In this document: piece by piece, positions 1 through 37,236 of the stretch
Layout of the letters: each line of letters starts with the position of its first letter
Numbering within the stretch: the stretch's first letter is position 1
The notes under the pieces: model-generated
The model's database searches: none
Told to the model about the DNA's origin: nothing
The model's input: only the letters and a program-made list of their open reading frames with translations
Position numbers and translations under genes: made by a program
Source: a virus
Taxonomy: Duplodnaviria; Heunggongvirae; Uroviricota; Caudoviricetes
Virus record (IMG/VR): IMGVR_UViG_3300008107_010192
Span: 11,507 to 75,506 of that record
Length of the DNA: 64,000 nucleotides
Reading direction: 5' to 3' (one strand)

Positions 1-676
1 ATTTCACACGTTTTTACATATTTGTGAACTTTTTTCATAGAGTTCCACATTTTTTCATTCCATTTTGTTGCATTTGTATGTAAATGGATTCGTTCTAAAT
101 TTGACCATTTTGACTTATCAAAGTTTCTTAAAAAATCTCTAAATCCAACAGAAACAAATGGATCACCACTACCAGTTATATACAGCGTTTTTGTTGTTTT
201 ACCGTATTCATTTTCAATATCCTCAATCGTTTTTTTAATCCTTTGTATTCCATCGGCACTTTCCACAATTAAATCAACCCTACAAGATGGACATTTAAGA
301 TTGCACGTTCTATCAAATGAAAATTGAATTATTGTTGGGGGTTCAGTGATCCCGTTATTAAATAAATCAATTCTTTCTTTTAATTTACTCGGCATCTCAT
401 TCTTATGATAAAGAGTATCAGTATTACCAATTTTTCCAAATGTTACTAATTGATGTAAAAACGGACACTGACCTTTATCACAATATTTATAAGAGCCATC
501 TAAAACGGATTTTCTGATTTCTATAGCCTCTTCGGATTCCCAGGAATTTTTTAATGTGGTGTTTTCTGGTAGATACTTTTTCAACCACGATGCACAACAA
601 AGAAACCTATTTTTATGTTGTATTTCAAGTGACACAAATGGAACAGCACACACATAATTTTTTAAATCGATACTCA
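1..676 (-). CDS. radical SAM protein, N-terminal part (gene continues beyond window start); paralog of the 19540-26531 radical SAM family
   Basis: Manual translation of the minus strand from ATG at 676. N-terminus has Cys pattern CAVPF...CCASW...CDKGQC as in the paralogs, then CNLKCPSC (CxxxCxxC). Not in the ORF track because it is truncated by the window edge. Confidence 0.5.
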
Positions 677-1351
677 TTAAATTATATTTTTAATTTGTCT
701 CTTGTTATTTAATATATCTATTAAAAATTCTGAAAATTCATAGTGGGAGTCCTCGCACCAATGACCATCGTCTACCTCTCCATTGGTTTCTTGTTTTATG
801 TTTCTATATTTTTTAGATAAAATAATCCCACATTTTGACAGGTCTGAACACCATGACCAATGAATTATTTTATTTTTAAGAGAAAAATTAATCAATTTCA
901 TCCAGTTACATATTTCTAGTACGTAAGGGAAATTCGATCTATTAATTAGTAATTCTTGTATTGTTTTTTCCGAGATAAACTCAAATGTCTCAATTTTTTT
1001 ATGTGCAAAAAATCCGTTTTCGTTACCTGGTTCAGGATTGAAATGTCCCCACTGATCTGACTTATTTACTAATCTAAACCTACTTTGATTAGTCCAACCA
1101 AAAATTAAAATATCCCCTTCCTTAATTTTATCAACAACTTTACAAAACTCCTCTAAAATATGCGAGTTATCAACACCTCCCAGTCCTAAATTTATTAAAT
1201 TTAAACCAAGTTTCTCAGCAATAATCTCACCATAAACTTTCGGGACATATCCCTTATATTCAATGTATTTTTGTCTCCAGTGTATTGTTGATCTTTCCGG
1301 GGGGTAAAAATAATCGGTAAACGAATCCCCAAAGGTCCACAGATTATTCAT
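677..1351 (-). CDS. SGNH/GDSL-like hydrolase (paralog family member 1)
   Basis: N-terminal WTFGDSFTD (GDS block I), GLGGVDNS (block II-like), C-terminal DDGHW (DxxH block V-like). Paralogous to 3417, 4558, 13734, 17125, 22025. Confidence 0.5.
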   Translation of the reverse strand: MNNLWTFGDSFTDYFYPPERSTIHWRQKYIEYKGYVPKVYGEIIAEKLGLNLINLGLGGVDNSHILEEFCKVVDKIKEGDILIFGWTNQSRFRLVNKSDQWGHFNPEPGNENGFFAHKKIETFEFISEKTIQELLINRSNFPYVLEICNWMKLINFSLKNKIIHWSWCSDLSKCGIILSKKYRNIKQETNGEVDDGHWCEDSHYEFSEFLIDILNNKRQIKNII

Positions 1352-1893
1352 CAGATCATTGTTTTATTTTTTTCTTGTCTTGTTGTTAATTTAATTGTTA
1401 CATCGGATATCTCGATAGTATGATCTAGCTCTATAATAAAGTTTAAAATTTTAAACAAATCCTCGAATTTGAGTTTATTAAAATTCGCACCAAACATTTT
1501 ATTATTCTCCATTGTACTTGGGTTAAAATTAATAACTCTAACTTTTTTATACGGATTGGCAATATTTAATGTCTGTGATAAATTTATTAGGTGTTTTTTA
1601 TTTGAGACATATAGAGGACTAAAACATCCGTCCTCGTGTACTGCGGACGTTCCAAAATTTATTATTGTTTTTTCTAAATCCTTCCATTTTTCGAATAGTT
1701 CAAAAAAAACCAAGGATTGCTTCACATCTTTACTATATGCATGATTTAAAAATACATCGCATGAAGCTACCTGCGATAATATAGTGTCAATTTCTTCTCT
1801 TAGATCTATTTTAATTATATCGTGGGTCTTTCCCCACATAAGCGAAGCGTAATTGCCAAAACCGTCTGAAGTACCTGATATTGCTATTTTCAT
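1351..1893 (-). CDS. short NAD(P)-binding Rossmann / SDR-like protein (tentative)
   Basis: N-terminal MKIAISGTSDGFGNY resembles the SDR glycine-rich TGxxxGxG motif. Only 180 aa and the catalytic YxxxK is unclear. Confidence 0.3.
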   Translation of the reverse strand: MKIAISGTSDGFGNYASLMWGKTHDIIKIDLREEIDTILSQVASCDVFLNHAYSKDVKQSLVFFELFEKWKDLEKTIINFGTSAVHEDGCFSPLYVSNKKHLINLSQTLNIANPYKKVRVINFNPSTMENNKMFGANFNKLKFEDLFKILNFIIELDHTIEISDVTIKLTTRQEKNKTMI

Positions 1894-2393
1894 ATTAATT
1901 TCGAATTTCCTATTTGTAAATCATTCTTATTTAAAAATAATATAAGGGACCATCTCTCACCTCCTAATATTTTTTTCACTTCATGGTCCCTATCACTTTT
2001 CATTGTATAAATTGTCCCAGTAACTTTAGGAAGTATTTCTAAAGGATTATATGCAATGAATTCTCCACCATCATAACTTTCATTTAAACAAACACCTATA
2101 TTTAAAATTTGATCAGGATGCGTTGTCGAATCATTATGTTTAGCAAATTCATTACCAGCCAAATAACGATGCAAATATATTTCTTGCATTTCATTTATTT
2201 TATTTTTTGAATATTCATCTAAAAGAAATTCTTTCAGTCGATCAAATATCCACTGGGTGTTACTATTTCTAAGTACAACATGATAATAGTAATTAAAATC
2301 ATTTCTTTTAAATAATGATGATGAGTGTTTAGGTTTAAAAGTATTTGATAGATTAATTATCTTATTACATTCTTCTATTGAAAATGAAATCAT
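1890..2393 (-). CDS. 2OG-Fe(II) oxygenase (prolyl-4-hydroxylase-like)
   Basis: HPD (HxD) ... RDHEV (distal His) ... RWS (RxS 2OG-binding) arrangement; DGGEF double-strand beta-helix signature. Confidence 0.6.
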   Translation of the reverse strand: MISFSIEECNKIINLSNTFKPKHSSSLFKRNDFNYYYHVVLRNSNTQWIFDRLKEFLLDEYSKNKINEMQEIYLHRYLAGNEFAKHNDSTTHPDQILNIGVCLNESYDGGEFIAYNPLEILPKVTGTIYTMKSDRDHEVKKILGGERWSLILFLNKNDLQIGNSKLI

Positions 2394-2881
2394 ATTAATT
2401 TTTTTTTATTCATTATGTCGGTTCTTAATCGTTCAGAACTATTCTCGTCAAATAGATCTTCATAATATTGAATTGGTATTTTTAATTTATCAGACAATTC
2501 CTGTAAATCTTGACCCATTTTTATTAAAAGTTCTCTTGATTTATCAATCGTTTCTACTGGTGGTGCGACATATTCATATGGGGTTCCGGAATGATACCCA
2601 TTTCGAATATTGTGATAAAGGTAAGAGTATGATTCGAGATGATTTTTAAAATTTTTTCGATTTAATAATATCACATCATCAAATTTTTTTGATAATTCAA
2701 AATTATTCTCGTGCTGATGTATTATTGTTTTAACAACAACGTTATTCATATCATCGTCATATAAAAAACGATCACTACCGTCAAACGGCTCAAAGATTGC
2801 TCTAAATTCTCTTTCTTTCGAAATTTTATGTAATAAAGATGTAGATCCCGTTCTGGGTAATGATATTATTAAAATTCTCAT
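2390..2881 (-). CDS. sulfotransferase-like protein (Stf0/Sulfotransfer_3-like, tentative)
   Basis: N-terminal ISLPRTGSTSL matches the 5'-phosphosulfate-binding loop PRSGTT. Downstream LNRKNFKNHLES fits the RxxxxxxxS 3'-phosphate-binding motif. Shorter than typical at 163 aa. Confidence 0.45.
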   Translation of the reverse strand: MRILIISLPRTGSTSLLHKISKEREFRAIFEPFDGSDRFLYDDDMNNVVVKTIIHQHENNFELSKKFDDVILLNRKNFKNHLESYSYLYHNIRNGYHSGTPYEYVAPPVETIDKSRELLIKMGQDLQELSDKLKIPIQYYEDLFDENSSERLRTDIMNKKKLI

Positions 2882-3420
2882 ATTAATCTTTTATTGTCAT
2901 ATAATTTAAGATATTTAAAATCTGTATTAGTCATCCAAACATTTAAAGCGCATCTAACCCCAGTCGTGACAGGCATAACCCCATGGTATATTTTACTTCC
3001 ATCAAAAGATATGGACTGTCCTATTTTTAACAAATGTTTTTGTGAATCGTTTATGTTTTTTGATTTTGATAATATAAATCTCCCATCTTCAAAATTTTCG
3101 CTTAAAACTATTACTGTAGTTAGCTGTGAGGTTGAATCCAAGTGTAAATCTAATCTTCTACTATCGTAATATTTGGTAATACTTATATTAAAATCTTCAA
3201 TTTTAAAATCTTTAAAATTAAACCACAATTTAAATTTTTCTTCTTCAAAATTTTTTATGAACCTGTCAAATATCAATTTATTAAATCCTAAATCGGAAAT
3301 TCTTTTACAATCCCAAACCTCGGATGGATTATAATTAAATTTTTTACCCACCCTATCTGCATATTCAATAATTGAATTACATTCCTCACCTCCAAAGAAA
3401 TTGTTTATCGAATAGTTCAT
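2878..3420 (-). CDS. 2OG-Fe(II) oxygenase
   Basis: HLD (HxD) ... IYHGV (distal His) ... VRCAL (Arg) in jelly-roll spacing; paralog of 1890 and 4052. Confidence 0.55.
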   Translation of the reverse strand: MNYSINNFFGGEECNSIIEYADRVGKKFNYNPSEVWDCKRISDLGFNKLIFDRFIKNFEEEKFKLWFNFKDFKIEDFNISITKYYDSRRLDLHLDSTSQLTTVIVLSENFEDGRFILSKSKNINDSQKHLLKIGQSISFDGSKIYHGVMPVTTGVRCALNVWMTNTDFKYLKLYDNKRLI

Positions 3421-4052
3421 AATATTTTTTTATCCTTTATATCCTCCACAAATTCTACAACGGGTTCTTCTATTTCTAATAATCCATGAATTATTTTATA
3501 CATTTCGTAACATCCTTTAGGTCCTGGATGAAAATCTATTTTTTCTCCAACTCCTTCTTCCCAATTGGAAGTTACCTTAATAAGTGTTACAAAGTCAGAG
3601 GTAGGAATGGCGAATTGTTCACTCCATGTAATAAACACTGGATTATATATTTTTAACCATTTTTGGAGATTTTTTAAAAATTTAATGTCATTTTCCCTAA
3701 CACCGTTTATCCAATTATTACCTTCAGTGAGTCTTAAATCATCTAATTTTTCGGCAAATTTACTATCCTTATAATATTGTGGCGATCTGTACTGGTTATT
3801 TAAATATAGTTCTTTTTTATCCCCATAATACCTTCCGGGTAACCTTCCAGGGTCAGTAAATACAATAACAATTCTATCTCCCTCCATATATTCATCTAAA
3901 TTACCTAATTGAAAAATTATTGAGGAGTTATCAGCCCCAAGTTTACCATGTTTATAAACTTCGTAGTGTTTTGATAAATAATATCTCCAATGGTATTTTG
4001 GTATGTGCCAATCAACAAAAGAATCCCCAAAGCAAAATAATCTCGGTTTCAT
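3417..4052 (-). CDS. SGNH/GDSL-like hydrolase (paralog 2)
   Basis: N-terminal LFCFGDSFVDW, GKLGADNSS block; same family as 677. Confidence 0.5.
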   Translation of the reverse strand: MKPRLFCFGDSFVDWHIPKYHWRYYLSKHYEVYKHGKLGADNSSIIFQLGNLDEYMEGDRIVIVFTDPGRLPGRYYGDKKELYLNNQYRSPQYYKDSKFAEKLDDLRLTEGNNWINGVRENDIKFLKNLQKWLKIYNPVFITWSEQFAIPTSDFVTLIKVTSNWEEGVGEKIDFHPGPKGCYEMYKIIHGLLEIEEPVVEFVEDIKDKKIL

Positions 4053-4555
4053 TAAATTAAAGACGTTCTTTTTTTATTAAACATTATAACTAAAACCCTC
4101 CTTTGTCCAGATTCTAACTGTGTAACTTGGTGAACCTGGTTGTTTCCCTCGAAATTAACATACTGTCCAATTTCTGTAAAATTTACATCCTCTCCATCAA
4201 TTATTAATCTTCCTCCCACAAATTCATTCGATAACAAAATTAACGTGGTCTGTAAAACAAAATACTTATCTCTGTGAGGTTTTGTTAAGTTTCCTTTATC
4301 ATATATTAATTCATAGAAAAAATCTATTTCATATTCAGGTTTGCCAAATTTTTCAACAATAAATGAATTAAACTTGCTATCGTGCATCCCATAATATTTC
4401 ATTGATGTCAGGATTAGTGCATCCTCGCCTTTGATAACTATATAGGGATGCTTATATTTTAAATTTTCATATTCTAAAGGATTCATTCCCCCATTTTCCG
4501 AAAGTGCTTGATTGATGTAATCGATCTCTTCGCTATTTAAACAACCAATATCCAT
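4052..4555 (-). CDS. 2OG-Fe(II) oxygenase
   Basis: HRD (HxD), GGRLII, VHQV (His), RRVLV (Arg). Confidence 0.55.
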   Translation of the reverse strand: MDIGCLNSEEIDYINQALSENGGMNPLEYENLKYKHPYIVIKGEDALILTSMKYYGMHDSKFNSFIVEKFGKPEYEIDFFYELIYDKGNLTKPHRDKYFVLQTTLILLSNEFVGGRLIIDGEDVNFTEIGQYVNFEGNNQVHQVTQLESGQRRVLVIMFNKKRTSLI

Positions 4556-4557
4556 AG

Positions 4558-5376
4558 TTATATCAAGATGTTAATTTTTCCTTTAGTCTTTTCCGATATG
4601 ATTTTATTTTCTCCAATAAAACGGTATATTTCATCGGAAATTAGTTCATATCCAAGCTTATTTGGATGTACACCAACAAGGTTAATTGGGTTTTTAAAAT
4701 TCTCCCAAATACTTTTTTTATCAAAACTGGTTAAAAAGTCCCTAAATGTTTCTTTGCGGAATCCCCAATAGTGCCTAGTGTCGATCAAATCGGTTTTATC
4801 AATTTCCCCTATAATATTTTTTGGCAACATCATATCGAATCCATCGCAAAACAAATATCTAATACCCAAATTTTTAAACATATATTGCAAATACAATAAA
4901 TAACCCTGGTTGACTATGTTATAATAATTTTCGTTGTATAAATTAACCGTGTACCATTCCTTATAGTCGATTTTTAATTTATTATAAATTTTATTTTCCC
5001 CATTTGAGCTCAGTATATGATCGTATATGTATTTTTTGTCTAGATGTCTTTTACTCCATGAATGCCATTCATTATCTGGCGGAAAAAATGGCAATTCTTC
5101 CCTTAAGGGGGAAGACCACATTATAATCACTAGATCATTCTCTTTAATCCTACCAGTATCTATACATTTACAAACGCAATTAAATATGAATCGATTATCT
5201 GATCCACCTACTCCGTAATTTTGGAGGTCTATTTTTAATTTTTCTGCTAATTGTTTTGGCCAAGAATATTTGCTCCGAATTTTTGTTTTTTCCTCTAAAC
5301 TACTTACCGCATTCTCTTCTGCTAAATCTCCACCAACACCCTCCGTCCAGCTATCCCCGAATGTATATAATTTCAT
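4558..5376 (-). CDS. SGNH/GDSL-like hydrolase (paralog 3)
   Basis: YTFGDSWTEGVGG (block I), YGVGGSDN (block II/III), GVHPNKLGYELI (block V HPN..G). Confidence 0.55.
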   Translation of the reverse strand: MKLYTFGDSWTEGVGGDLAEENAVSSLEEKTKIRSKYSWPKQLAEKLKIDLQNYGVGGSDNRFIFNCVCKCIDTGRIKENDLVIIMWSSPLREELPFFPPDNEWHSWSKRHLDKKYIYDHILSSNGENKIYNKLKIDYKEWYTVNLYNENYYNIVNQGYLLYLQYMFKNLGIRYLFCDGFDMMLPKNIIGEIDKTDLIDTRHYWGFRKETFRDFLTSFDKKSIWENFKNPINLVGVHPNKLGYELISDEIYRFIGENKIISEKTKGKINILI

Positions 5377-5975
5377 AACAGGTTTTTTTTAAACATCTTA
5401 TTGATTTCTCTTTCTCTTACCCAAATAACTAAAATATATTTTACACCATCCACAATTGGTAAACCAGCATGTAATGATTTTTTATTTAGTGTTCTATCCG
5501 GGTTTAAATTATTCCACACCAGCAAATCCCCCTGATTTCCTTTTATTTTAATTTTTTTCAAAGGAAATTCAGTTTCTCCCCCGATATAATCATCATTTAA
5601 ATAAAATATTCCGGTTATTAATCGATCACCGCTTTCCCCATTAGGTATATTCTTTGGGTCTCCGTAGCAGTCATAATGTGGCTTGTATTCTCCCCCAATT
5701 CCATATCTTATAAAGGATACCGGGGTTTCTTGCTGATTAATGGTTGTTTTTGTTTTTTCTGAGAATATTTTACGAACTTTTTTTAGTAATTCGGATTCAT
5801 TTCCATATACAGCAATTTCAGCTTTTCTATATTTTATATCTGATTCCACATCCCCATTAATTGTTCTCGCAGTTTTAAATTCGTTAAATTCTTTTATTAA
5901 TTTTTCACAATCCATTTTATCTAATACTTCTGCATGTAATTGATATAAAAGGTTATTATTTTCAAAGTATCTCAT
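5373..5975 (-). CDS. 2OG-Fe(II) oxygenase, prolyl 4-hydroxylase-like
   Basis: KPHYDCYGDP (HxD), GGETEF, LHAGLPIVDGVKYILVIW (distal His plus basic residue). Start moved to internal Met (MRYFENN), which gives an ATGA overlap with the stop of the upstream gene; the ORF-track start 6038 would overlap 67 nt. Confidence 0.55.
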   Translation of the reverse strand: MRYFENNNLLYQLHAEVLDKMDCEKLIKEFNEFKTARTINGDVESDIKYRKAEIAVYGNESELLKKVRKIFSEKTKTTINQQETPVSFIRYGIGGEYKPHYDCYGDPKNIPNGESGDRLITGIFYLNDDYIGGETEFPLKKIKIKGNQGDLLVWNNLNPDRTLNKKSLHAGLPIVDGVKYILVIWVREREINKMFKKNLL

Positions 5976-6463
5976 ATAATAGTTTTTAATTTTCCCCAGT
6001 TCTTTATGTCCCCGTATCTTATATAAAATAACGCACAATATCTAACCCCTCTTTTTACTTTTTTCACTTCGTGATATTCGCTTGATTTATAATGATATAT
6101 TTCACCCATCGGTTTCAAGTATGGTTTATCGTTTAAATAAAACTCCCCACCTTCATAATCATCATTTAATAATATATTAATATTATAAATAAAATCTCTA
6201 CTGAGTGAATTAGTGGCGGACCCCGAATCTATATGTTTTTGAATTAGGTCACCCTCAATGTATTTTAATATACCTACATTAATTGTACTAATGTCCAAAT
6301 TTAAATACTCACTACAATATTGAATAATTAAATTTTTAATTTCACCGTCTTCGACTTCAAATAAAGTGGAATAGTATGAACCACCAGTCTTCACCCTTTT
6401 CCATAAATTTTTTGATTCTGATAACTCAATCAAATACCTACAATGACTATTTGAGATTTTCAT
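5972..6463 (-). CDS. 2OG-Fe(II) oxygenase
   Basis: QKHIDSG (HxD), YEGGEFYL, YHEVKKVKRGVRY (His and Arg). Confidence 0.55.
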   Translation of the reverse strand: MKISNSHCRYLIELSESKNLWKRVKTGGSYYSTLFEVEDGEIKNLIIQYCSEYLNLDISTINVGILKYIEGDLIQKHIDSGSATNSLSRDFIYNINILLNDDYEGGEFYLNDKPYLKPMGEIYHYKSSEYHEVKKVKRGVRYCALFYIRYGDIKNWGKLKTII

Positions 6464-6466
6464 TAT

Positions 6467-6976
6467 TTAAATTAAATTTTTATAGATTTTAATCTGATCT
6501 ATTTCATTTGTCAATGATCCATAAATTCCAATTCTTTCTGGGGTTGAAAATTCGTCACATAAAAAATCCTCTGTTTTAAAAATTAATAGATCTCCGTCTT
6601 CCAATACTATTTCTTTTATTTCATTTTTTAATCTTAATGATATCTTACTTTTAAAGGATTTTATAAAAAGAATGAATGAATATTTTGATTTTGGATTTAT
6701 CCCTCTTTTTAACTGCTTATCGAATTTTATTTCTTGGTCCAATTCCTGTTCCTGTATATAAGCGAAGGTGTTTTTGACATATACTTGAAAATCCTCTAGA
6801 GTTTCTTTTTCTAGGTTTTGTAATATGATTTCAATTATTTTTAAAGTTGTGTCCGATTCTAACCACAGGATTCTCTTATTAAATTCGGATTTTACGTGAT
6901 GTGAATTCAGTATAATATCATATTTTAATAGTTCCAAATTAATTTTTGGCTTAACGATTTTATAAAACATGATCAA
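6467..6976 (-). CDS. hypothetical protein, degenerate paralog of the neighbouring oxygenase-like gene
   Basis: Shares the GDLLIFKTEDF segment with 6973..7686 (GDLIFKTEDE) but lacks the metal-binding His/Asp residues. Confidence 0.3.
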   Translation of the reverse strand: MIMFYKIVKPKINLELLKYDIILNSHHVKSEFNKRILWLESDTTLKIIEIILQNLEKETLEDFQVYVKNTFAYIQEQELDQEIKFDKQLKRGINPKSKYSFILFIKSFKSKISLRLKNEIKEIVLEDGDLLIFKTEDFLCDEFSTPERIGIYGSLTNEIDQIKIYKNLI

Positions 6977-7629
6977 GAATTTATATGATTTTTGAAGACG
7001 ATCCTTCTATTTGTTTCCCTAATAGAATTAAAATCATAATTAATATTCGTTGTGTATACTATTCTATCAGATTCTGAACCTAATGTAAGGGTTGGCATAT
7101 GTTGTAAATCACCAGGAAAAAATAGAATATCGCTTTCTTTTGGAGTGAATGAATGTAATTTTTCGTCTTCTGTTTTAAAAATAAGATCCCCTTCTCCATC
7201 TTTAAGATCCGAAGGAATTTGTATATAAAAAACATAGGTCCATTGCGTTTTCAAATTTGTTCTATTCGATGATTCTATCCAGTCATGGGTGTGCATCCAT
7301 TCCATTTTAAAACCCGGAACTTGTATGTATATCCAACTGGATTTTATAAATCTGTCTATTTTGCAAGACAATTTTTTCCTTAAAAAATCCAATGCCTGAT
7401 TATCTACAGATCTAAATTCATCGCATCCAATATGGACGTCCAATGAATTTTGTACCCTGTATGTCTCGTTTTGGTATAAGGATTCGTTTTGATATATTCT
7501 AGTTAAAAATTCTTTTTTCGAAAACTGATTATCGTACCTTGTCTTGTAGATTGTGTATTTTTCTGACAGCTTATATTGTTCTGAAAAGTTTATTTTTTTC
7601 ATATTTCCCATATTTAGTAAACAGTTCAT
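6973..7629 (-). CDS. cupin/2OG-oxygenase-like protein (divergent)
   Basis: HTHDW and LQHMP His-containing segments flank a beta-rich core. Start is uncertain: ORF-track start 7686 overlaps the upstream gene by 116 nt and internal Mets lie at 7629/7611/7602. Confidence 0.3.
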   Translation of the reverse strand: MNCLLNMGNMKKINFSEQYKLSEKYTIYKTRYDNQFSKKEFLTRIYQNESLYQNETYRVQNSLDVHIGCDEFRSVDNQALDFLRKKLSCKIDRFIKSSWIYIQVPGFKMEWMHTHDWIESSNRTNLKTQWTYVFYIQIPSDLKDGEGDLIFKTEDEKLHSFTPKESDILFFPGDLQHMPTLTLGSESDRIVYTTNINYDFNSIRETNRRIVFKNHINS

Positions 7630-8005
7630 TTCCACGATATATTTTTTTCGTGGCAATCGATAAATTTCTATCAATATTCGGTTCACTATCCCAAGAACAG
7701 CTGTTTACCCAGTGCATGGGTGTTTTAAATATCCAATGACAATTTTTTTCTAGATTGACATTAAACGTCCATTCGTCACCAATCTTAGAAAATTCGTACA
7801 TATCATAAACATGGATCTTAACGTTATAATCAAGGGAATTTAATTCTGATTCAGTTAATTGGTAAATCCCTGAATCCCCCTTCCAGTTAACGAATATTTC
7901 TTCCCCCTCATCGATATCTCTAAGAGCAAAAATACCTACTCCGTGTATATTGCTCGGCGACATTTTAACGTTCACATGATTTTTGATGTATTCATATGCA
8001 GTCAT
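7571..8005 (-). CDS. SET-domain protein (putative protein lysine methyltransferase)
   Basis: IHGVGIFALRDIDEGEEIF (GxG..FA..I..GE.I SET N-region), VNSCSWDSEPN (NHSC.PN-like), RGNELFTKYG (EEL..YG C-flank), ~140 aa like viral vSET. Confidence 0.5.
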   Translation of the reverse strand: MTAYEYIKNHVNVKMSPSNIHGVGIFALRDIDEGEEIFVNWKGDSGIYQLTESELNSLDYNVKIHVYDMYEFSKIGDEWTFNVNLEKNCHWIFKTPMHWVNSCSWDSEPNIDRNLSIATKKIYRGNELFTKYGKYEKNKLFRTI

Positions 8006-8478
8006 TATATGAAATTTTTTGGTGTGGTTCTGAATTGAGATCCATAGTTTCCTAATATCTCTTCACCTTCTTTTATCTTTCTAATTGCAACAGGTGCCAC
8101 ATTATTATTGCTATCCACGTTACAGTTTTTCAATCCACTGTTCATAAACATTTTTGGCCAAATGTATATCCAGTGATAACCTCGCTCTAAGGGGAAAAAT
8201 ATTTTTCCATATTCCTTAGGTATGATTTGTTCGACCCCATTTTTATCAACAAACCACATTTTATTGTCAAAGGTTTCGTATAAATTTTTTTGGAGCTTAT
8301 CAGGGAGTGTGAATAATTCTTCCTGTGTAATTGAATATATCCCACTCTCCCCATGCCAAAGATCAAAAACAGATTCACCTGCTTCAATATCTCTAATGGC
8401 AAAAAATCCAACGCCCTCTACAGAACTCGGCTTAAGTATTGCTGTGACCTTTTGCTGAAGATATTCTAAAGGAGTCAT
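8005..8478 (-). CDS. SET-domain protein (paralog of 7571..8005)
   Basis: VEGVGFFAIRDIEAGESVF, MNSGLKNCNV, IKEGEEILGNYG; directly tandem to the other SET gene. Confidence 0.55.
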   Translation of the reverse strand: MTPLEYLQQKVTAILKPSSVEGVGFFAIRDIEAGESVFDLWHGESGIYSITQEELFTLPDKLQKNLYETFDNKMWFVDKNGVEQIIPKEYGKIFFPLERGYHWIYIWPKMFMNSGLKNCNVDSNNNVAPVAIRKIKEGEEILGNYGSQFRTTPKNFI

Positions 8479-8642
8479 AAATATCCACAGAATTTAAGAA
8501 TGTTTTAACTTAATCAGTTCTACAAGTTTTGACAATATAGTGAAGGTTTTCTGTTTTTTATCCTCGCTGATCGATGAAGCTTGTCTTAATTTAAGATCAA
8601 CAGTATTAATTGACTTATATTTTGTTGGTTTTATCATGATCT

Positions 8643-10517
8643 TTATATTTTTGGTATTCCTCTGTTATGTGCTAAAATTCCATTAGCAAAAAAGTTATGA
8701 TTATTTTTAATATCCTGTAAATTATAAACTAGAGTGGTTTCTTCTATCATGTTTATGTTCACAATTTTTGAGCTCCCCTTTAATAACTTTAAACAGTCTC
8801 CAATCTCTATCTTACCGATTTTAGATTCTATAGTATACAGTTTATTAGATAGATTATTATCGAATGAAGACCATCCTTTATCTTCAACATATACTGGGTG
8901 ATCTATGGTACATTTTAAAAATTCACCATTCTCTAATTCATACTCAACAATTCGGTCCACTTTTTTACTATAAACAGCATTTACTGTATTGGCCTCAATA
9001 TTATTTGATAGCATGTTAAGTGTCAGTACAGAATCACCAGCAATAATATCCTCTATATTTTTTGTAACACCTTCCGAGATGGTTATTTTCGTGCCTGCAA
9101 CGAAACATGGTGCATTGTGTGTTACGAATGAATTGACAGGAGTTGATCCTGCTATTATGTAGGTGTCAGTATCCTCAACATCAATTTCAACTAAGCTGAA
9201 ATTGTTTTCATTAATTATTAATATTTCAGAATTTGTGACCTGCGCTAATGATCCATCATAATCTACTAAGTAATCTGTCGTTGTTTTTATGTTTACAGAT
9301 TGTTTCCATACGATCGAGTCCATTCCCTCGTCATAAACTAAGAAAGATTTATGAACCGACGTATAAATTGAATCCTCGTTATTATTTACTGTTATATTAG
9401 ATAATGTTTTATTCAACAATTCTTTACTATTTTTATATATAACAGTAGATGTCGTTAGATTAGATTCCGGTGGTAAGGTGTTTCCTGATATTTGCCAAGT
9501 TGGATATGTGAAGTCGTCTTCCGTTAAATCTGTTCCCCCTATATAATAAGATTTTATTTCTTCCCCGACAGAAATGTTCCCTATTTCTACCTCAGTATCA
9601 TCAGATTTAATTATTAAATGCGTGTTTAAAATGCCATCAATTATACCATCATATTTAATAAAATTTGTTGCAAACTCGTAATAATGTTTATTGTCTATCT
9701 TATTAATGTATTGGGCTTCATTATAAATTGATTCGACAGGTAATTCAAATGCCGCACTTTCCTGAAATTGTCCTACGTGAATTAGGGACAGATCACCTCC
9801 GTAAATAATCGAGAAAGTTCTCACTGTGGAAACTTTATTATCTGAAACGGTTTGTGAACTTATGTGATATTTTTGTATTACGTTATTTTCTGTTGCCTTT
9901 TCGCTGATGAATACTCCCCATCGGCTTTGGTCTGTATCTTCAGTGGATTCGCTGCCTATTTTATAAAAATCTATAAGGGAATGTTCCGCATCGCTTATGT
10001 TTTTTATTAAGCAATCTGGCAAATTTCCCGAATTAAAATCCCTAGAAATCGTATCGTATTGTCCGAGTGAGGATGAATGATAAAACTCCGCAACGCTATC
10101 CTGCTCATTATAATCACAGAATAGCCTAAGTGTGTTTAATGTTCCCTTAGCATACTCGCTATCAAAAATGGCTGATTCGTCATACGCCATTCTCAGAACG
10201 AATAAGTCTGAAGCATCCTCAACAGGAGTCGGGTATATTCTGTTTGATTGCTCTTTTATCTCCTTAAATTCTGTGATAAATGGAGCGTTCGATGTCAATG
10301 ATTCGGAAAGTTTATCGACTATATACTGATGTATGTTCGGCTTATGTACTACCGTTACTCTTGTGATGTTATTGCTCTCTAAAACCGAGATAAGGTCGTT
10401 AAAATCCAGATAGACTAAATTATTAGTCGAAATAGTTGTGTCTGTATTTACTTCCAATAGTCTTAAATTGCCAACGCTATCCTCAATAAAATCCGCGGAA
10501 AAAAAGGTTCCTTTCAT
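8643..10517 (-). CDS. large protein with C-terminal Hint (hedgehog/intein-like) autoprocessing domain
   Basis: C-terminal ~140 aa: CFVAGTKITISEG (Hint block A Cys) ... TIDHPVYV (block B TxxH) ... NHNFFANGILAHN (blocks F/G) then RGIPKI and stop. Hint-region coordinates about 8664..9091. Confidence 0.6.
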   Translation of the reverse strand: MKGTFFSADFIEDSVGNLRLLEVNTDTTISTNNLVYLDFNDLISVLESNNITRVTVVHKPNIHQYIVDKLSESLTSNAPFITEFKEIKEQSNRIYPTPVEDASDLFVLRMAYDESAIFDSEYAKGTLNTLRLFCDYNEQDSVAEFYHSSSLGQYDTISRDFNSGNLPDCLIKNISDAEHSLIDFYKIGSESTEDTDQSRWGVFISEKATENNVIQKYHISSQTVSDNKVSTVRTFSIIYGGDLSLIHVGQFQESAAFELPVESIYNEAQYINKIDNKHYYEFATNFIKYDGIIDGILNTHLIIKSDDTEVEIGNISVGEEIKSYYIGGTDLTEDDFTYPTWQISGNTLPPESNLTTSTVIYKNSKELLNKTLSNITVNNNEDSIYTSVHKSFLVYDEGMDSIVWKQSVNIKTTTDYLVDYDGSLAQVTNSEILIINENNFSLVEIDVEDTDTYIIAGSTPVNSFVTHNAPCFVAGTKITISEGVTKNIEDIIAGDSVLTLNMLSNNIEANTVNAVYSKKVDRIVEYELENGEFLKCTIDHPVYVEDKGWSSFDNNLSNKLYTIESKIGKIEIGDCLKLLKGSSKIVNINMIEETTLVYNLQDIKNNHNFFANGILAHNRGIPKI

Positions 10518-11113: not shown

Positions 11114-11542
11114 TTATACGCGCAGAAGGAGACAAAGTTCCACGAAAGATCTTTCTATGCTGGATCCGTTTCGAAAAATTAAAAAGTTTTCCTCAGGACC
11201 TTCAAAATTTTTAACGTGTAACTTTTCCTTCCCTCCGTAATCGTTCCTGGAAAATAAAACCTCTACAACATCGTTATTTTGCTTTAGATCTTCCCTTATA
11301 GCACGATAAGGACAAACCATACTTATCACCACGTTATGTCCTTTAACCGACATAAAACGAGCTATAGTGAAGGACCTTTCTATGTTCTTGATCCTGCCAG
11401 AATAAGAATAGTCAGTATTGGGGAATATTTCCCTCAGATCATCGCCATCTATCCATACAGTTCCCATTCCTAATCTTCTAACTAAGAGCTCTGCCATTGT
11501 AGTTTTACCCGATCCTGGCTGTCCTATTAATAGGTATATCAT
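11114..11542 (-). CDS. P-loop kinase, adenylylsulfate (APS) kinase-like
   Basis: LIGQPGSGKTT (Walker A), WIDGDDLREIF (compare CysC LDGDNVRHGL), RIKNIERSF...VVISMVCPYRAIRE (compare CysC RKENIRRV...VLTAFISPHRAER). Confidence 0.5.
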   Translation of the reverse strand: MIYLLIGQPGSGKTTMAELLVRRLGMGTVWIDGDDLREIFPNTDYSYSGRIKNIERSFTIARFMSVKGHNVVISMVCPYRAIREDLKQNNDVVEVLFSRNDYGGKEKLHVKNFEGPEENFLIFRNGSSIERSFVELCLLLRV

Positions 11543-13113: not shown

Positions 13114-13762
13114 ATTCTATTCCCGTGTATATTTTAAACTGTTCGATAGCTTGATATCTTGACATTAATTTTCCGCTTTCGAATTCTGTTCTTGCTTCGA
13201 TAATCCGACCGTTTGTGCAAACGTCCACTGGAGTTGCATTAAAAATCCACCCATCCAAACTTTCAATTTTGCTCCAGTTTTTCCTTTCTATTATTTCATA
13301 CTCTATTCCCCGAATTCTACACACATATTGGACTGCTAGACTAAAACCTCCATTTCCCAGTATGGCTATTTTTTTAACTTCCCTTGGTAAATATTTATCT
13401 ATGCCAATCCAGTCTGTGTTGTAACCGAGTAATTTGTTATCAACTATTTTAACAGTATTACACGAACCAATATCTGCGACGGAAGAATCACACCAATCTA
13501 AATAATCTAATATTTGCACTTTATACGGCATGCTAATTGCAAATCCACCAAATTTTAAGTTCTTAGCGGATTCTACCGATAATTCTATATCGTCGCTATA
13601 AAATGATTTATAAATTGCATCAACTGAATACTTCTGAAAAGCACTATTGAAAAAATGACATCCATTATTTCCTGGGTTCTTTGAAAAAGATCCGAATATC
13701 TTAGTATCCTTGTTTATCAACACCTGCGACATTTTATAGTGATAATAATATATTTTCAGCAA
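13106..13762 (-). CDS. shikimate/quinate dehydrogenase-like (AroE family), C-terminally short
   Basis: KIFGSFSKNPGNNGCHFFNSAF (AroE substrate domain), GGFAISMPYK (catalytic Lys), SCNTV, LLGYNTDWIG (NTD motif), IAILGNGGFSLAV (Rossmann GxGG). Confidence 0.6.
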   Translation of the reverse strand: MLKIYYYHYKMSQVLINKDTKIFGSFSKNPGNNGCHFFNSAFQKYSVDAIYKSFYSDDIELSVESAKNLKFGGFAISMPYKVQILDYLDWCDSSVADIGSCNTVKIVDNKLLGYNTDWIGIDKYLPREVKKIAILGNGGFSLAVQYVCRIRGIEYEIIERKNWSKIESLDGWIFNATPVDVCTNGRIIEARTEFESGKLMSRYQAIEQFKIYTGIEYV

Positions 13763-14519
13763 TTATATACTGTCCAGTTTCGTTTGGGTGATGATCGTTA
13801 ACTAATTCTTCCCAAAATTTTGTATCATAATTTTTATATCTGTCAGAATATCTTAAGCATTCATTTGATGTAAACCTCTGAGCGTCGATATTAAATTCAT
13901 CATCATCTAGCGGAAAGTAAATAATTCTGCTTGGATGAGTAATTGTTTTAATGACATTTTCTTTCCTTTTTTGCGTGGAATTTACATCTTTAGGATGTAT
14001 AGGGTTTAAAAACCAATATTTAACTGTCGCACCTATTTTATTTTCCAAATAATCAAAAACAGGAAGTACGTTTTTAAATCCAAGAATTAATAATTCAATT
14101 CTAAAATCTAAAACGAAATCTACGTATTTTTTCATTTTTTCTTCATCATAAAATTTTTCACTCCTGAAATAATCAATCTGATGCCAATCAAAATCTATCA
14201 ATACGTCATTTATTTCAAATATGTCTTTACTAGACCACGATTCTCTTACGTGGTTTTCGTTAACAAAAGGTACAGGGAACCTATCTGGGTATGTAAACTC
14301 GAAAACCACTAAATCCCCCTTCTTTATTTTTTCCATCTGCCTGAACAGCTTTACCGTAGATTCAAAATTGGATTGACCACTAAACCCGTTATTTACAAAA
14401 TTGAATCCAATTTTTTCGGCTAATATTTCTGGCCAAAATTTCAAGCCGTATTCTTTTTCGTGATGTGGAGAATGAGTCCAACTACATCCGTAAGCCCATA
14501 GTGTGTTTTTTGTAATCAT
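13734..14519 (-). CDS. SGNH-like hydrolase paralog (GCS variant)
   Basis: LWAYGCSWTHSP in place of GDS block I, NGFSGQSN, NDHHPNETGQYIIA (block V). Confidence 0.45.
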   Translation of the reverse strand: MITKNTLWAYGCSWTHSPHHEKEYGLKFWPEILAEKIGFNFVNNGFSGQSNFESTVKLFRQMEKIKKGDLVVFEFTYPDRFPVPFVNENHVRESWSSKDIFEINDVLIDFDWHQIDYFRSEKFYDEEKMKKYVDFVLDFRIELLILGFKNVLPVFDYLENKIGATVKYWFLNPIHPKDVNSTQKRKENVIKTITHPSRIIYFPLDDDEFNIDAQRFTSNECLRYSDRYKNYDTKFWEELVNDHHPNETGQYIIAENILLSL

Positions 14520-16413: not shown

Positions 16414-17128
16414 GATATTGATCTTGATTATTTCCCCAATCCATCGTTTTTTGGAATATCGTATTTATAGATATCTCTTCTTTATTTAACTGTCTAGAGT
16501 TAGCCCTTACAGTAACGACAGATGTTCTTGGAATTTTTTTAATTTTTATTTCACTTAGTAAAATGTGTTTGGCTAAGTGATGATGCATGGAGCCGTTACA
16601 TTCGTTTCCGTCTAATCTTTCCGGTATATTATCAATTAATTTTTCGATTAGATCATATTTACCAAAGAAAAAAATATCCTGTATGAATAATTCTTCCCCG
16701 TTATTTCTAATCTCTTCTAACCCGTATACAGATCCCTCTCTTAAATCCTCATCCGAATTTATATTCTCAAAATCGAAATTAAAATCAAAATAATTATCAG
16801 GTCTTGTTAGCATGATATAATCATATTTTATACCGCTTTTTTTGATCATTTTAAGCCCGGATTTCCAGTGGAATATCATCTTTTCTGGATTGGTTAATTC
16901 AGAAAACACATCATCTAATATTAAAACATTTGCGTCTTTAATATGATCTAATATTCTTTTTTCTGTGACTTCCTCGTCGATTATGATGTCTAGTTTTTTA
17001 TTTTTTTGCTTGGATCTAGACCATGTTGAAAAATAAACCTCGCAATCAAACTTGCTTAAAAAATTCCAAGAAGTAACAGCAATATCAAATTCCCTATACA
17101 TCCCATAAACCAAAATTGCAATTTTCAT
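16397..17128 (-). CDS. GT-A-like putative glycosyltransferase (MKIAI family paralog)
   Basis: MKIAILVYGMYREFD...YFSTW and HWKSGLKMIKKSGIKYDYIMLTRPD resemble the W.K......YDYI.(D/R)xD core of GT34/nucleotide-diphospho-sugar transferases. Confidence 0.3.
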   Translation of the reverse strand: MKIAILVYGMYREFDIAVTSWNFLSKFDCEVYFSTWSRSKQKNKKLDIIIDEEVTEKRILDHIKDANVLILDDVFSELTNPEKMIFHWKSGLKMIKKSGIKYDYIMLTRPDNYFDFNFDFENINSDEDLREGSVYGLEEIRNNGEELFIQDIFFFGKYDLIEKLIDNIPERLDGNECNGSMHHHLAKHILLSEIKIKKIPRTSVVTVRANSRQLNKEEISINTIFQKTMDWGNNQDQYHENNL

Positions 17129-17784
17129 ATGATTTTTACCTTTGATTTTATTTCATTTTCTATGTATTGGCAAAAATCCCTATGACCCTTGAATGACCAG
17201 TGATGGTTTACTATTTCTCCCTTTGTTGCATTGACTATTAATTCAAATTTTTCCCAGAGACTTTCTACATCCCAGATATAGCAGAGATTTACTCCTCTAT
17301 CTTTTAGTAGTCTTTCTCTCAAAAAATTCAGTCTAAAATCGTGTCTGATAGAATAAGCTTTCTGTGTTGCAAATTCTATTGAAAACATTTTTATGGTCTC
17401 TATCTGCTCGTTGGTAAATAATCCAACGGTTGCATCTTCAAACCATTTTTGTACGTCTTTTTCCCCTCCCCTATAAACTATAGATTTGACTTCCGGTGAA
17501 TCATTTTCTTTCGGAAAGTCAAATCTGTGTGACCAGGTTTTACCTATTATTACTATATCGTCCTTAGAAATATCCTCCCAGTTTTTTATTATAGTATCAA
17601 TAATAGTATCGTTAGACACCCCAGGTAAACCTTTATTTTGTAGAGCATAGTTTATTTTTCTGGATAATAATTTATTCCAAGAAAGGTCATCATCTTTTAA
17701 CCTATATCTTTGATAATATAGATCATGATCTAATGTGCCGTCTCCGTATGTAAAAGAACATCCAAATGTCCAGATTTTATTCAT
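17125..17784 (-). CDS. SGNH-like hydrolase paralog (GCS variant)
   Basis: IWTFGCSFTYGDG, KGLPGVSNDTI, NHHWSFKGH. Confidence 0.45.
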   Translation of the reverse strand: MNKIWTFGCSFTYGDGTLDHDLYYQRYRLKDDDLSWNKLLSRKINYALQNKGLPGVSNDTIIDTIIKNWEDISKDDIVIIGKTWSHRFDFPKENDSPEVKSIVYRGGEKDVQKWFEDATVGLFTNEQIETIKMFSIEFATQKAYSIRHDFRLNFLRERLLKDRGVNLCYIWDVESLWEKFELIVNATKGEIVNHHWSFKGHRDFCQYIENEIKSKVKII

Positions 17785-24497: not shown

Positions 24498-24498
24498 G

Positions 24499-25152
24499 TT
24501 AAATTATTTTGGCGCTAGGCGCTATTTTATTGAATTCGTTGATCGAATGGCTAGAGTATTCTGGATCTTCAAATATAATTCCATGATTTCCGTTCCCACT
24601 TTTATCGAATGTTTTAAATTTTGAATTTCTTTCAAAATCAAAAAACGAGTACAGCTTTTTTGATTTCTCGTCAAAGGAATCGACGATTTCATCGAAAACT
24701 GCAATTTTATAAATATCCCCTTTGAACCAGCATTCATAAGATCCACTGTATGGATTTATAGATCCTATAAAAATATTCTTGTCCGAATAAGATTCAATTG
24801 GACCGGTTTCTTTTTCACCTTTTAAAATTCCATCGATGTATATTTTAACAGAATCTGAAACTGTCACCATGACCTCCATTCTTTTATGTATATCATCAAC
24901 AGGTATCCAAATATCGTTATATTGATAGGGTTTAGTGTACCAAGAGAATTTAACACCATTTGGTTTCTGTAAAAATATTCCCATATGGTATCCTATCCTT
25001 CCTACAATCAACGACTCATCCTCTGCAAACTCAGAGAGTTGAAAATCCCCATAAAGAGAAAAATTCCCCTCCAGATTTTCAAAATTCTTTGTGTTCGTAT
25101 TATTTTTAGAATTGTTTGGGATGTAATATGCTTTCTTTTCGAATCTCATCAA
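24499..25152 (-). CDS. LamG/concanavalin-like domain protein (tentative)
   Basis: MVTVSDSVKIYIDGILKGE...IFIGSINPYSGSYECWFKGDIYKIAVFDE resembles the LamG_3/pentraxin-type beta-sandwich. Confidence 0.35.
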   Translation of the reverse strand: MMRFEKKAYYIPNNSKNNTNTKNFENLEGNFSLYGDFQLSEFAEDESLIVGRIGYHMGIFLQKPNGVKFSWYTKPYQYNDIWIPVDDIHKRMEVMVTVSDSVKIYIDGILKGEKETGPIESYSDKNIFIGSINPYSGSYECWFKGDIYKIAVFDEIVDSFDEKSKKLYSFFDFERNSKFKTFDKSGNGNHGIIFEDPEYSSHSINEFNKIAPSAKII

Positions 25153-37220: not shown

Positions 37221-37236
37221 CAAAAATTAATTTAAT

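Follow-up and report, generated by a model that had tools for sequence, protein, structure and literature searches.

An SGNH-fold, oxygenase and P-loop gene unit conserved among related phages is expanded into a modular array of putative tailoring enzymes in an uncultured freshwater phage

The array described here occupies positions 677–7686 of a 64,000-nucleotide stretch of tailed-phage DNA (IMG/VR record IMGVR_UViG_3300008107_010192, positions 11,507–75,506; hereafter "the window"). We find it to be the expanded form of a conserved core in which genes for an SGNH-fold protein, a 2-oxoglutarate (2OG)-Fe(II) oxygenase and a putatively sulfotransferase-like P-loop protein follow one another in fixed order. 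Between close relatives, gene pairs of the array are present, absent or relocated, and these comparisons support a modular, variable tailoring region. Together, the conserved trio and the gained and lost modules argue for a multi-step macromolecule-tailoring pathway rather than a metabolic drain on 2OG or DNA repair. Tentatively, and with confidence a little short of even, we read the array as a cytoplasmic pathway that hydroxylates and then decorates a phage-made protein, peptide or glycoprotein, a component of the virion surface being the likeliest target. A preliminary description of this DNA had presented a two-gene theme, SGNH hydrolase plus oxygenase, repeated four to five times; the feature is real, though part of it was mis-described, and nothing yet shows chemistry or biology outside known categories.

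Twelve open reading frames (ORFs) fill the region, all on the minus strand as first described, gap-free and abutting or overlapping by a few bases at their stop and start codons. The array is part of a long co-directional operon: every gene from 677 to 32461 lies on the minus strand, and the majority from 32570 to ~55900 on the plus strand. Five canonical 2OG-Fe(II) oxygenases, the divergent Oxy5 and its paralog x169, three SGNH-fold proteins, one P-loop protein and one tentative short-chain dehydrogenase (SDR) are encoded, given here in the order of transcription.

6973–7629, minus strand: Oxy5, a divergent 2OG-oxygenase-like protein of ~209–218 aa with HxH...H...R; the longest ORF reaches 7686
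6467–6976, minus strand: x169, a paralog of Oxy5, called as 167 aa from the ATG at 6970
5972–6463, minus strand: 2OG(5972), a short-type oxygenase of 163 aa; PF13640 at 29.2 bits
5373–5975, minus strand: P4H, a collagen-type prolyl 4-hydroxylase homolog of 200 aa from Met22; the longest ORF is 5373–6038
4558–5376, minus strand: SGNH-c, an SGNH/DUF6071-like protein of 272 aa with FGDSWT ... GVHPNKLGY
4052–4555, minus strand: 2OG(4052), a short-type oxygenase of 167 aa with H-R-D...H...R; phrog_2297 at 4e-6 and a BLAST match to 2OG(2878)
3417–4052, minus strand: SGNH-b, 211 aa, with FGDSFV and a His within IDFHPG; joined to the family by profile alignment
2878–3420, minus strand: 2OG(2878), an oxygenase of 180 aa; phrog_61 at 6.8e-12
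2390–2881, minus strand: P-loop protein of 163 aa, sulfotransferase-like by prediction, with an invariant P-R-T-G-S-T loop, no Walker-A Lys, and R75...S84
1890–2393, minus strand: 2OG(1890), a short-type oxygenase of 167 aa with HxD...H...R; PF13640 at 33.1 bits, phrog_2297
1351–1893, minus strand: SDR-like protein, a tentative short-chain dehydrogenase of 180 aa, with an N-terminal GxxxGxG and a YxxxK read in the sequence
677–1351, minus strand: SGNH-a, 224 aa, with FGDSFT at residues 7–12 and DDGH at 194–197, without a signal peptide

The core is defined by comparison with related loci. A profile of the P-loop protein gathered 80 further IMG/VR loci, which were annotated by hidden Markov models built from our own alignments; the total came to ~90 related viral contigs, and de-replication of the loci at 90% P-loop identity left 42 lineages. 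In 34/40 lineages the next gene upstream of the P-loop gene encodes an oxygenase, 30 of these oxygenases being of the 2OG(2878) type (39–81% identity), and an SGNH gene lies directly upstream of the trio's oxygenase in 24/34 (20 of the SGNH-c type, at 41–59% identity). In its commonest layout the locus reads APS (adenosine 5'-phosphosulfate) kinase ... 2OG ... Oxy5 ... Hint-N protein, small ORF, SGNH, 2OG, P-loop, with either a radical SAM gene or two unknown genes plus a further SGNH gene next in line. What the related contigs conserve is the order Hint protein, 45–50-aa ORF, SGNH, 2OG, P-loop, often with a radical SAM gene behind it, and not strict repeated SGNH/2OG pairs. The window array is this core expanded, with 2OG(4052) and SGNH-b placed within the trio and additional genes flanking it.

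The close relatives compared share anchors with the window (Hint, 47-aa ORF, SET, SET ... radical SAM), and between these anchors the gene content moves in small units. The 2OG(4052) and SGNH-b genes are adjacent in 4/4 loci (the window, L011, L012 and L013), SGNH-b directly after the oxygenase; 2OG(1890) and the SDR-like gene are both missing in L013 and both relocated in L011; and the position following P4H, empty in L011 and L012, is taken in the window by SGNH-c and in L013 by a member of the GSCFA family (Pfam 3.8e-34). The additions of the window's clade (the SETs, four oxygenases, Oxy5/x169, two SGNHs and the SDR) were shown to have come as one- or two-gene modules. Within the window itself, an oxygenase is followed directly by an SGNH gene only twice (5373 to 4558 and 4052 to 3417), the other oxygenases having as next genes the P-loop gene (2390–2881) and the tentative SDR (1351–1893), so that the theme of four to five repeats dissolves. 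By our own calculation, four oxygenases would fall non-adjacent among nine genes with a chance of ~0.12, and the alternation within the window is not statistically compelling.

Two observations on the relatives touch the same rearrangements. At 9498–9662 of L011, between 2OG(4052) and SGNH-b, a 54-aa fragment (VKILLVGIGRCGTISL...AEPF) is similar to the N-terminal part of the P-loop protein, whose complete gene has been relocated in this relative; the fragment looks like the scar of a module rearrangement. In L007 (3257–4507) and L009 (4319–5533, 6171–6896), genes resembling tryptophan halogenases dependent on flavin adenine dinucleotide (FAD) and Sulfotransfer_2 proteins lie between the upstream oxygenase and the Hint gene, extending the repertoire of the cassette to halogenation and a second type of sulfotransferase.

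The array genes were first described as old, retained duplications, and this stands. Each paralog has an orthologous group of its own, with 52 members for SGNH-a (38–81% identity), 59 for SGNH-b (52–98%), 34 full-length members for the 2OG(4052) type (51–100%) and 32 for the P4H type. All array genes are under purifying selection, with ratios of nonsynonymous to synonymous divergence (dN/dS) of 0.05–0.25 that are approximate, dS being near saturation. The duplications are old because no DNA-level repeats occur among the copies or at their junctions, residual similarity being confined to the sequence coding for an LNxxYxGGE motif; recent tandem duplication and repeat-mediated shuffling were ruled out on the same junctions. 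Recombination inside the array has nonetheless been recent, since 2OG(5972) is 99% identical to its counterpart in L013 (6328–6819) at a dS of 0.06, against a dS of 1–2 for the neighbouring genes. The proposed selection on substrate diversity finds no support in these data, which show purifying selection on each copy plus the gain and loss of modules.

The five canonical oxygenases are interrelated (BLASTP, 25–34% identity, E 1e-4 to 3e-11), and their earlier assignment to prolyl-hydroxylase-type 2OG enzymes was borne out. The PF13640 gathering score (27) is passed by 3/5, namely 2OG(1890) at 33.1, P4H at 48.2 and 2OG(5972) at 29.2, and PHROG 2OG families match 5/5. The iron triad of the HxD...H motif (H121, D123 and H190 in the numbering of 5373) is invariant in 5/5 copies, and the basic residue after the distal His is Arg in the four short copies and Lys in P4H. 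Against PDB sequences (phmmer), 5373–5975 matches the Bacillus anthracis P4H structures 3itq/5hv0 at 3e-17, as well as Chlamydomonas 2jig, PBCV-1 5c5t and human C-P4H alpha-2 7zsc (E range 1e-11 to 3e-17), and an identical 200-aa database protein carries the Joint Genome Institute (JGI) name prolyl 4-hydroxylase. A profile of the four short copies matches the PKHD hydroxylase 3dkq (3.7e-7) and the mimivirus lysyl hydroxylase 6ax6 (3e-5), as well as P3H1 and P4H; its TET-like DNA oxygenase matches are not significant (E 0.2–0.3), and AlkB-type chains are absent from its PDB matches. All five copies are accordingly placed, as a prediction from sequence, in the protein-hydroxylase (prolyl/lysyl/PKHD) branch of the superfamily, since the P4H, PKHD and lysyl hydroxylase matches are significant and the TET matches are not. 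DNA-base hydroxylation of the TET/JBP type is disfavoured by the same E-values.

These matches also bear on an auxiliary metabolic role, in which consumption of 2OG would shift the nitrogen or energy status of the host, or the oxygenases would repair alkylated DNA, with their neighbours as passengers. This has been put forward for the multi-copy oxygenases of cyanophages (PMC3037559; PMC9602691), and the region is indeed a hotspot of gene gain and loss. We regard it as very improbable here: the enzymes are P4H/PKHD-like, with no AlkB-type PDB chain and TET only at E 0.2, and the proposal leaves unexplained the SGNH-2OG-P-loop order over 42 lineages, the co-moving modules and the purifying selection on an inactive oxygenase paralog. 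Among the rivals to a tailoring pathway for proteins, it explains the conserved gene coupling least well.

The inactive paralog just mentioned is x169, which with Oxy5 had been taken for a pair of decaying oxygenase copies (6467–7686). Oxy5 has orthologs at 37–78% identity, H113, H115, H177 and R189 are invariant in 7 of them, and its family matches are below threshold (PF13759 E 0.038; PF13640 E 0.01; TIGR02466 E 0.0035, 17.2 bits against a cutoff of 62.5). We file it as 2OG-oxygenase-like, outside TIGR02466/2OG-FeII_Oxy_5 membership, with an HxH...H...R pattern that is compatible with an active double-stranded beta-helix enzyme. The x169 protein aligns end to end with Oxy5 and keeps the Arg and framework residues without the HxH and distal His, has 34 representative homologs at 28–58% identity, and is probably a conserved, catalytically dead paralog. 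Both genes are maintained, because dN/dS against three relatives is low (~0.05 for Oxy5, 0.18–0.24 for x169) and orthologs of both are conserved, which rules out decaying pseudogenes.

The SGNH-like family to which SGNH-a, SGNH-b and SGNH-c belong has 6–8 or more copies per genome, and the further copies reported at 13734, 17125 and 22025 do share its invariant Ser and His.

13734–14519, minus strand: SGNH-like paralog, a G-C-S variant, with BLASTP matches to 17125, 4558 and 677
17125–17784, minus strand: SGNH-like paralog, a G-C-S variant, with BLASTP matches to 13734, 677 and 4558
22025–22945, minus strand: SGNH-like paralog between radical SAM genes; DUF6071 at 1.7e-12, 48 bits against a cutoff of 27

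BLASTP ties 677, 4558, 13734 and 17125 together, and 3417 and 22025 enter by way of the profile. The three array ORFs open with FGDS. Across 76 family members G8, S10, D80, R91 and H197 are invariant and D9, G59, N62 and D195 nearly so, D9 being conserved in at least 90% and replaced by Cys in 13734 and 17125. Both G59 and N62 fall in the block II region; where block III would supply the oxyanion-hole Asn of GxND, the sequence is G-W-T...R, and its R91 does not vary. In block V, an Asp at −3 of the His is found only in 677–1351; the Asp conserved in the family sits at −2, and the Asp near the catalytic His is missing in 4558 and 22025. Pfam GDSL thresholds are reached by 0/3 array copies—677 and 3417 give no hit, and SGNH-c stays below threshold (Lipase_GDSL_2 7e-6, 27.1 against a cutoff of 32.9; DUF6071 8e-4)—and some SGNH orthologs bear precomputed PF00657 (Lipase_GDSL) hits.

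Within this family, structure was modelled for the 677–1351 copy alone, and the AlphaFold2 (AF2) model is a confident one (pLDDT 94, pTM 0.90). In a Foldseek search of the PDB, 46/50 top matches are SGNH/GDSL-type at template modelling (TM) scores of 0.3–0.5, headed by the carbohydrate esterase family 2 (CE2) structure 2w9x at 1.3e-4, 3mil and 1deo (TM 0.45–0.49); the closest solved structures are CE2, CE12, CE16 and acetylxylan esterases. The viral structure library BFVD gave 43 matches at E<1e-3, mostly uncharacterised small proteins of uncultured Caudovirales, and one protein of the viral library, A0A6J5LTW5, has an SGNH-like domain fused to a radical SAM domain. The array copies are divergent SGNH-fold relatives and not canonical GDSL lipases: we file them as such because the block V DxxH is not conserved, a state compatible with Ser-His dyad enzymes like CE2, and Ser-His dyad enzymes are probably what they are. 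The original motif reading, GDSxT...DxxH, therefore survives in the fold, the GDS and the Ser and His, and fails for the DxxH outside 677–1351 and for the Pfam GDSL models. The GDS motif begins at residue 8–10 in each SGNH protein, which leaves too little N-terminus for a signal peptide. A tblastn search with SGNH-a against GenBank phages gave zero matches, an exact-sequence look-up of the SGNH-c protein returned no entry, and a single-protein scan of viral contigs with SGNH-c gave zero relatives; a profile of the P-loop family did recover them.

The likeness of the SGNH model to CE2, CE12, CE16 and acetylxylan esterases invites the proposal that the array tailors glycans, modifying nucleotide sugars or a lipid- or fibre-linked polysaccharide made by glycosyltransferases (GTs) of the surrounding island, for the virion or for the host envelope. 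The chemistry would be sugar hydroxylation, O-acetyl editing, sulfation and keto-sugar formation. GT2, GT7+LamG and GT8 genes and sugar-nucleotide enzymes lie on the same strand run, and in relatives GT1 and GT9 genes stand right behind the trio. A 2OG oxygenase, KdoO, is known to hydroxylate a sugar of lipopolysaccharide (LPS), and cyanophage P-SSM2 carries LPS gene clusters. We nevertheless hold this to be unlikely, as the best matches of every oxygenase are protein hydroxylases, SET domains are protein lysine methyltransferases, and the array has no flippase, polymerase or other export gene.

The third member of the core, the P-loop protein, belongs to a family of 164 homologs at ~50% identity without a Pfam match, in which the PRTGST loop and R75/S84 are invariant columns. 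Its AF2 model (pLDDT 89.7) retrieves nucleotide-kinase and sulfotransferase folds in Foldseek, with the best TM (0.55–0.57) to the Stf0 sulfotransferase 1tex at E 0.013 and kinases slightly better by E-value. Nothing significant was found among PDB sequences with the P-loop profile, and tblastn against GenBank phages gave zero matches. A P-R-x-G-S-T loop plus a downstream R...S pair is typical of binding of 3'-phosphoadenosine 5'-phosphosulfate (PAPS). Past the radical SAM gene that follows the array, the interval 11742–12781 of L001 (just outside window position 1) encodes a 150-aa protein weakly resembling GNAT acetyltransferases and then, at 191 aa, a remote paralog of the present P-loop protein with a weak Stf0 Pfam match (E 0.011). 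An APS kinase gene lies near the cassette in 21 related loci and could supply PAPS for sulfation; that of the window is the following.

11114–11542, minus strand: APS kinase-like P-loop protein, PF01583 at 3.9e-11

We call the P-loop protein sulfotransferase-like, by inference, because of the Stf0 TM-scores, the weak Stf0 match of its paralog and the APS kinase nearby. A role as nucleotide or DNA kinase is less likely because the Walker-A Lys is missing from the invariant loop. The SDR assignment at 1351–1893 is tentative, with sub-threshold matches to adh_short (E 0.11, over the YxxxK region) and an NCBIfam ketoacyl reductase (E 0.01) and no match among PDB sequences; orthologs in L011 and L012 are 80–84% identical.

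Upstream of the array, at the head of the cassette, stand two SET-domain paralogs, a 47-aa ORF and a Hint-domain protein, and a radical SAM gene lies downstream, just past the window edge.

7571–8005, minus strand: first of two tandem SET-domain paralogs, Pfam SET at 2e-7
8005–8478, minus strand: second SET-domain paralog, Pfam SET at 8e-8
8494–8637, minus strand: 47-aa Lys-rich ORF, MIKPTKYKSINTVDLKLRQASSISEDKKQKTFTILSKLVELIKLKHS
8643–10517, minus strand: Hint anchor protein, a 460-aa N-terminal domain followed by a C-terminal Hint domain (Pfam Hint-type families over residues 463–621)

The SET paralogs are 34% identical to each other and have orthologs in L005 and L011–L013. The N-terminal domain of the Hint protein belongs to no known family and has no PDB match. 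In most related loci this protein is directly upstream of the small ORF and the array, and in relatives (e.g., L005 4189–6969; L007 6967–8460) the number of Hint domains ranges from none to three in tandem. This build, with an autoprocessing domain, suggests a protein that cleaves itself or that joins something to its N-terminal domain. The 47-aa ORF holds its position between the Hint protein and the enzyme array in all relatives examined, and its 37 distinct orthologs share the consensus ...ERP..IK...P(L/I)S...K.K..AFQ.VV..IK.KH(L/S). Its product may have a structural or assembly role, or may be what the array enzymes act on.

The latter possibility leads to a maturation scheme resembling that of ribosomally synthesised and post-translationally modified peptides (RiPPs), with the 45–50-aa ORF as the substrate of the Hint, SET, 2OG, SGNH, sulfotransferase-like, radical SAM and halogenase proteins. 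Besides the fixed position and conserved pattern of the small ORF, the enzyme mix, with an FAD halogenase in L007 and L009, resembles that of peptide natural-product clusters, and some distant P4H homologs (P0316, P0318) carry a fused C39 bacteriocin-processing peptidase domain. The ORF is, on the other hand, conserved uniformly, as an ordinary small helical protein would be, without a leader/core split or a hypervariable core; its Pro and Tyr are not conserved between clades; and domain searches of the array found no protease, exporter, transporter or RiPP recognition element (RRE) domain. We judge RiPP-like maturation improbable. We would put no more trust in the broader idea that the cassette is an unrecognised phage pathway of peptide or protein maturation, in which the small ORF or the autoprocessed Hint protein would be hydroxylated and then sulfated or acylated; if true, the window's larger set of enzymes would serve as a combinatorial toolbox for diversifying the product, e.g., a modified adhesin, signal or toxin.

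The SET genes raise one further alternative, namely that hydroxylases and SET enzymes modify translation factors or ribosomal proteins of the host for takeover. Ribosomal proteins and EF-Tu are known cellular targets of PKHD/Tpa1-type and P4H-type hydroxylases, a chlorovirus SET protein methylates host histone, and the homolog P0356 bears the JGI label Tpa1-like. Such targeting leaves the coupled SGNH and sulfotransferase-like partners and the glycan-rich context unexplained, and we think it very unlikely.

The hydroxylate-then-decorate pathway that we tentatively prefer would work as follows. Its enzymes would act in the cytoplasm of the infected cell, because they have no signal peptides, and a protein-type substrate is most likely because the oxygenases fall in the protein-hydroxylase clade. 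Oxygenases would first hydroxylate a protein, peptide or glycoprotein made by the phage; the P-loop enzyme may then O-sulfate the resulting hydroxyls using PAPS from the nearby APS kinase, the Ser-His SGNH enzymes may transfer or remove O-acyl groups at them, and the SDR may oxidise them, with lysine methylation added by the SET proteins. Gain, loss and swapping of modules among relatives would vary the decoration pattern. The likeliest class of target would be the virion surface, e.g., Ser/Thr-rich collagen-like fibres and their glycans. The earlier suggestion of tailoring enzymes acting on one polymer fits the context, except that a nucleic-acid base as substrate is disfavoured.

Several points weigh against this pathway. 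None of the tests identified a substrate. The SGNH matches are modest (TM 0.45–0.49) and nearest to carbohydrate esterases, pointing to glycan chemistry, and neither the canonical block III GxND nor the block V DxxH is conserved in the SGNH copies. The sulfotransferase call is weak (Foldseek E ~0.01, no significant PDB or Pfam sequence match), and that of the SDR rests on motifs and sub-threshold matches. Pairing of oxygenase and SGNH genes is not obligatory, because SGNH-b adjoins a methyltransferase rather than an oxygenase in the distant relative L015, and L010 has at least 8 SGNH-like genes, several in tandem without oxygenases. Gene order kept among related phages can, moreover, partly reflect shared ancestry and not function. 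Finally, the collagen-like repeats of the window take the form (G-S/T-S/T/N)n, with only ~five Pro (in G-x-P triplets) in the window's collagen-like proteins—a survey for proline-repeat substrates that covers 64 kb of a ~219 kb genome.

This last point concerns two fibre proteins with Ser/Thr-rich collagen repeats, one of which carries a tail-fibre chaperone domain. Being nearly proline-free, they would probably serve a prolyl hydroxylase poorly, which weakens the case for collagen-like fibres as targets of P4H; by their repeats they look more like substrates for O-glycosylation. The two collagen-repeat ORFs (46184–49315 and 48798–50822, plus strand) overlap by ~500 nt in different frames, within a GC-rich (45–49%) GGT-TCT-type repeat; joined, they would form a fibre of ~1540 aa ending in a Peptidase_S74 chaperone. 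A frameshift, programmed slippage or a fault in assembling the repeats might account for the overlap.

Genes of the wider island speak for a role of the array in surface decoration. The same-strand run includes GT2, GT7+LamG, GT8, a mannose-phosphate isomerase/nucleotidyltransferase fusion, UDP-galactopyranose mutase and a GFO/IDH oxidoreductase, and the surrounding ~45 kb hold glycosyltransferases, four to five radical SAM/SPASM paralogs, methyltransferases, ATP-grasp, sugar-nucleotide enzymes and the APS kinase. Four paralogous radical SAM proteins (24–33% identity) are encoded at 19540–26531 (minus strand), interleaved with the DUF6071 gene 22025–22945 and a LamG-like gene; at least two of them have SPASM N-terminal to the radical SAM core, an unusual order. 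At 27839–30684 (minus strand), two tandem paralogs (30% identity) fuse a eukaryote-type GT7 (beta-1,4-galactosyltransferase-like) to a LamG/concanavalin-like domain.

Multiple oxygenases in one phage genome are established in cyanomyoviruses, which makes the original view that the architecture has no precedent too strong. Such genes occur in 14/16 cyanomyovirus genomes, at up to five per genome (PMC3037559); phage S-SCSM1 has 24 of them (pfam13640/13661/13759/05721, ≤44% mutual identity), with functions "not specifically investigated" (PMC9602691); and viral P4H genes are abundant in Baltic viromes, where their use "remains cryptic" (PMC9301287). As in T4-like cyanophages, a large aquatic phage genome here carries many small (~160–250 aa), divergent PF13640/PF13759-type genes, in the window PF13640-type copies plus a PF13759/TIGR02466-like copy, and they cluster in variable regions and are exchanged within the phage gene pool (PMC3037559; PMC9602691). 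The window phage, however, is not a known cyanophage, SGNH, P-loop and SDR genes stand between its oxygenases in a fixed order, and the SGNH-2OG-P-loop trio is not described in PMC3037559 or PMC9602691. We did not find described the fixed association of oxygenase, SGNH and sulfotransferase-like genes, the SGNH-like expansion, a retained inactive oxygenase paralog or polymorphism at the level of modules, and the literature yielded no relevant description of DUF6071, or of SGNH plus 2-oxoglutarate enzymes in a jumbo phage.

Among characterised enzymes, collagen-type P4Hs align with 5373–5975 over ~175 residues with HxD...H...K in place, and this phage also encodes collagen-repeat proteins; yet the phage protein, whose activity is predicted from sequence, has no peptide-substrate-binding domain or protein disulfide isomerase (PDI) partner, and X-Pro-Gly is scarce. 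Mimivirus L230 follows a hydroxylate-then-decorate logic, as a viral 2OG hydroxylase of the same clade accompanied by glycosyltransferases and collagen-like proteins. L230, however, is a single bifunctional lysyl hydroxylase-glycosyltransferase of a eukaryotic giant virus and acts on viral collagen-like proteins, whereas here the proteins are separate, small and phage-encoded, the partners are SGNH and sulfotransferase-like with no fused glycosyltransferase, and the fibre repeats have no Lys. With SGNH/GDSL enzymes (CE2, CE12, CE16) the phage copies share the fold, the N-terminal G-D-S nucleophile and the C-terminal His, and CE2 also uses a Ser-His dyad (title of 2w9x); they differ in a TM of only 0.45–0.6, ~10–17% identity, the G-W-T...R of block III and an invariant Asn in block II, and in being standalone and cytoplasmic, not tail-fibre or secreted domains. 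The predicted likeness of the phage protein to Stf0-type sulfotransferases lies in the P-loop fold, the P-R-x-G-S-T loop, the downstream R...S and the presence of an APS kinase gene in the same operon. At 163 aa the phage protein is much shorter, has no significant sequence or profile match, and scores equally with kinase folds by E-value.

One oxygenase subtype locked into a three-gene unit over at least 42 lineages gives a concrete handle on what phage 2OG oxygenases do. A minimal set of small soluble proteins can be defined (the trio, the 47-aa ORF and the APS kinase) and, should the array turn out to decorate a virion fibre, it would represent a new way for phages to vary their surface chemistry.

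We conclude that the source is an uncultured freshwater jumbo phage. At least 21 metagenome contigs, the longest of 219 kb, encode the 677–1351 protein without a single difference, and four of them (L001–L004) contain the whole array with gene order and gene lengths unchanged. A nucleotide search of window positions 1–9000 against GenBank phages gave zero matches. At the protein level, neighbouring genes find their best counterparts in an uncultured phage of 484 kb and in Microcystis phage Mel-JY01, the nearest cultured match, which has a single P4H and no array. The host is possibly a member of the Bacteroidota; PhoH of the close relative L011 is 61% identical to that of Flavobacterium myophages. 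Window GC is ~30–35%. Twenty-one tRNA genes lie in several clusters at 38885–61141 (plus strand), and a transfer-messenger RNA (tmRNA) gene at 36839–37221 (plus strand) encodes a tag peptide ending ...ADYAIAA; a tmRNA plus 21 tRNAs is typical of very large phages.

A scan for promoters and terminators found no excess over shuffled sequence. At the gene junctions of 677–32461, many unrelated proteins end in K-x-[LI]-[IL], the next ATG overlaps the stop codon (ATGA or TAATG), and the overlapping starts sit after an A-rich stretch without a Shine-Dalgarno sequence. A targeting signal was considered for these shared tails and set aside in favour of the ATGA/TAATG junctions with their A-rich start context; the tails probably reflect a constraint of translational coupling or start context on the upstream C-termini, which would suit a Bacteroidota-type host.

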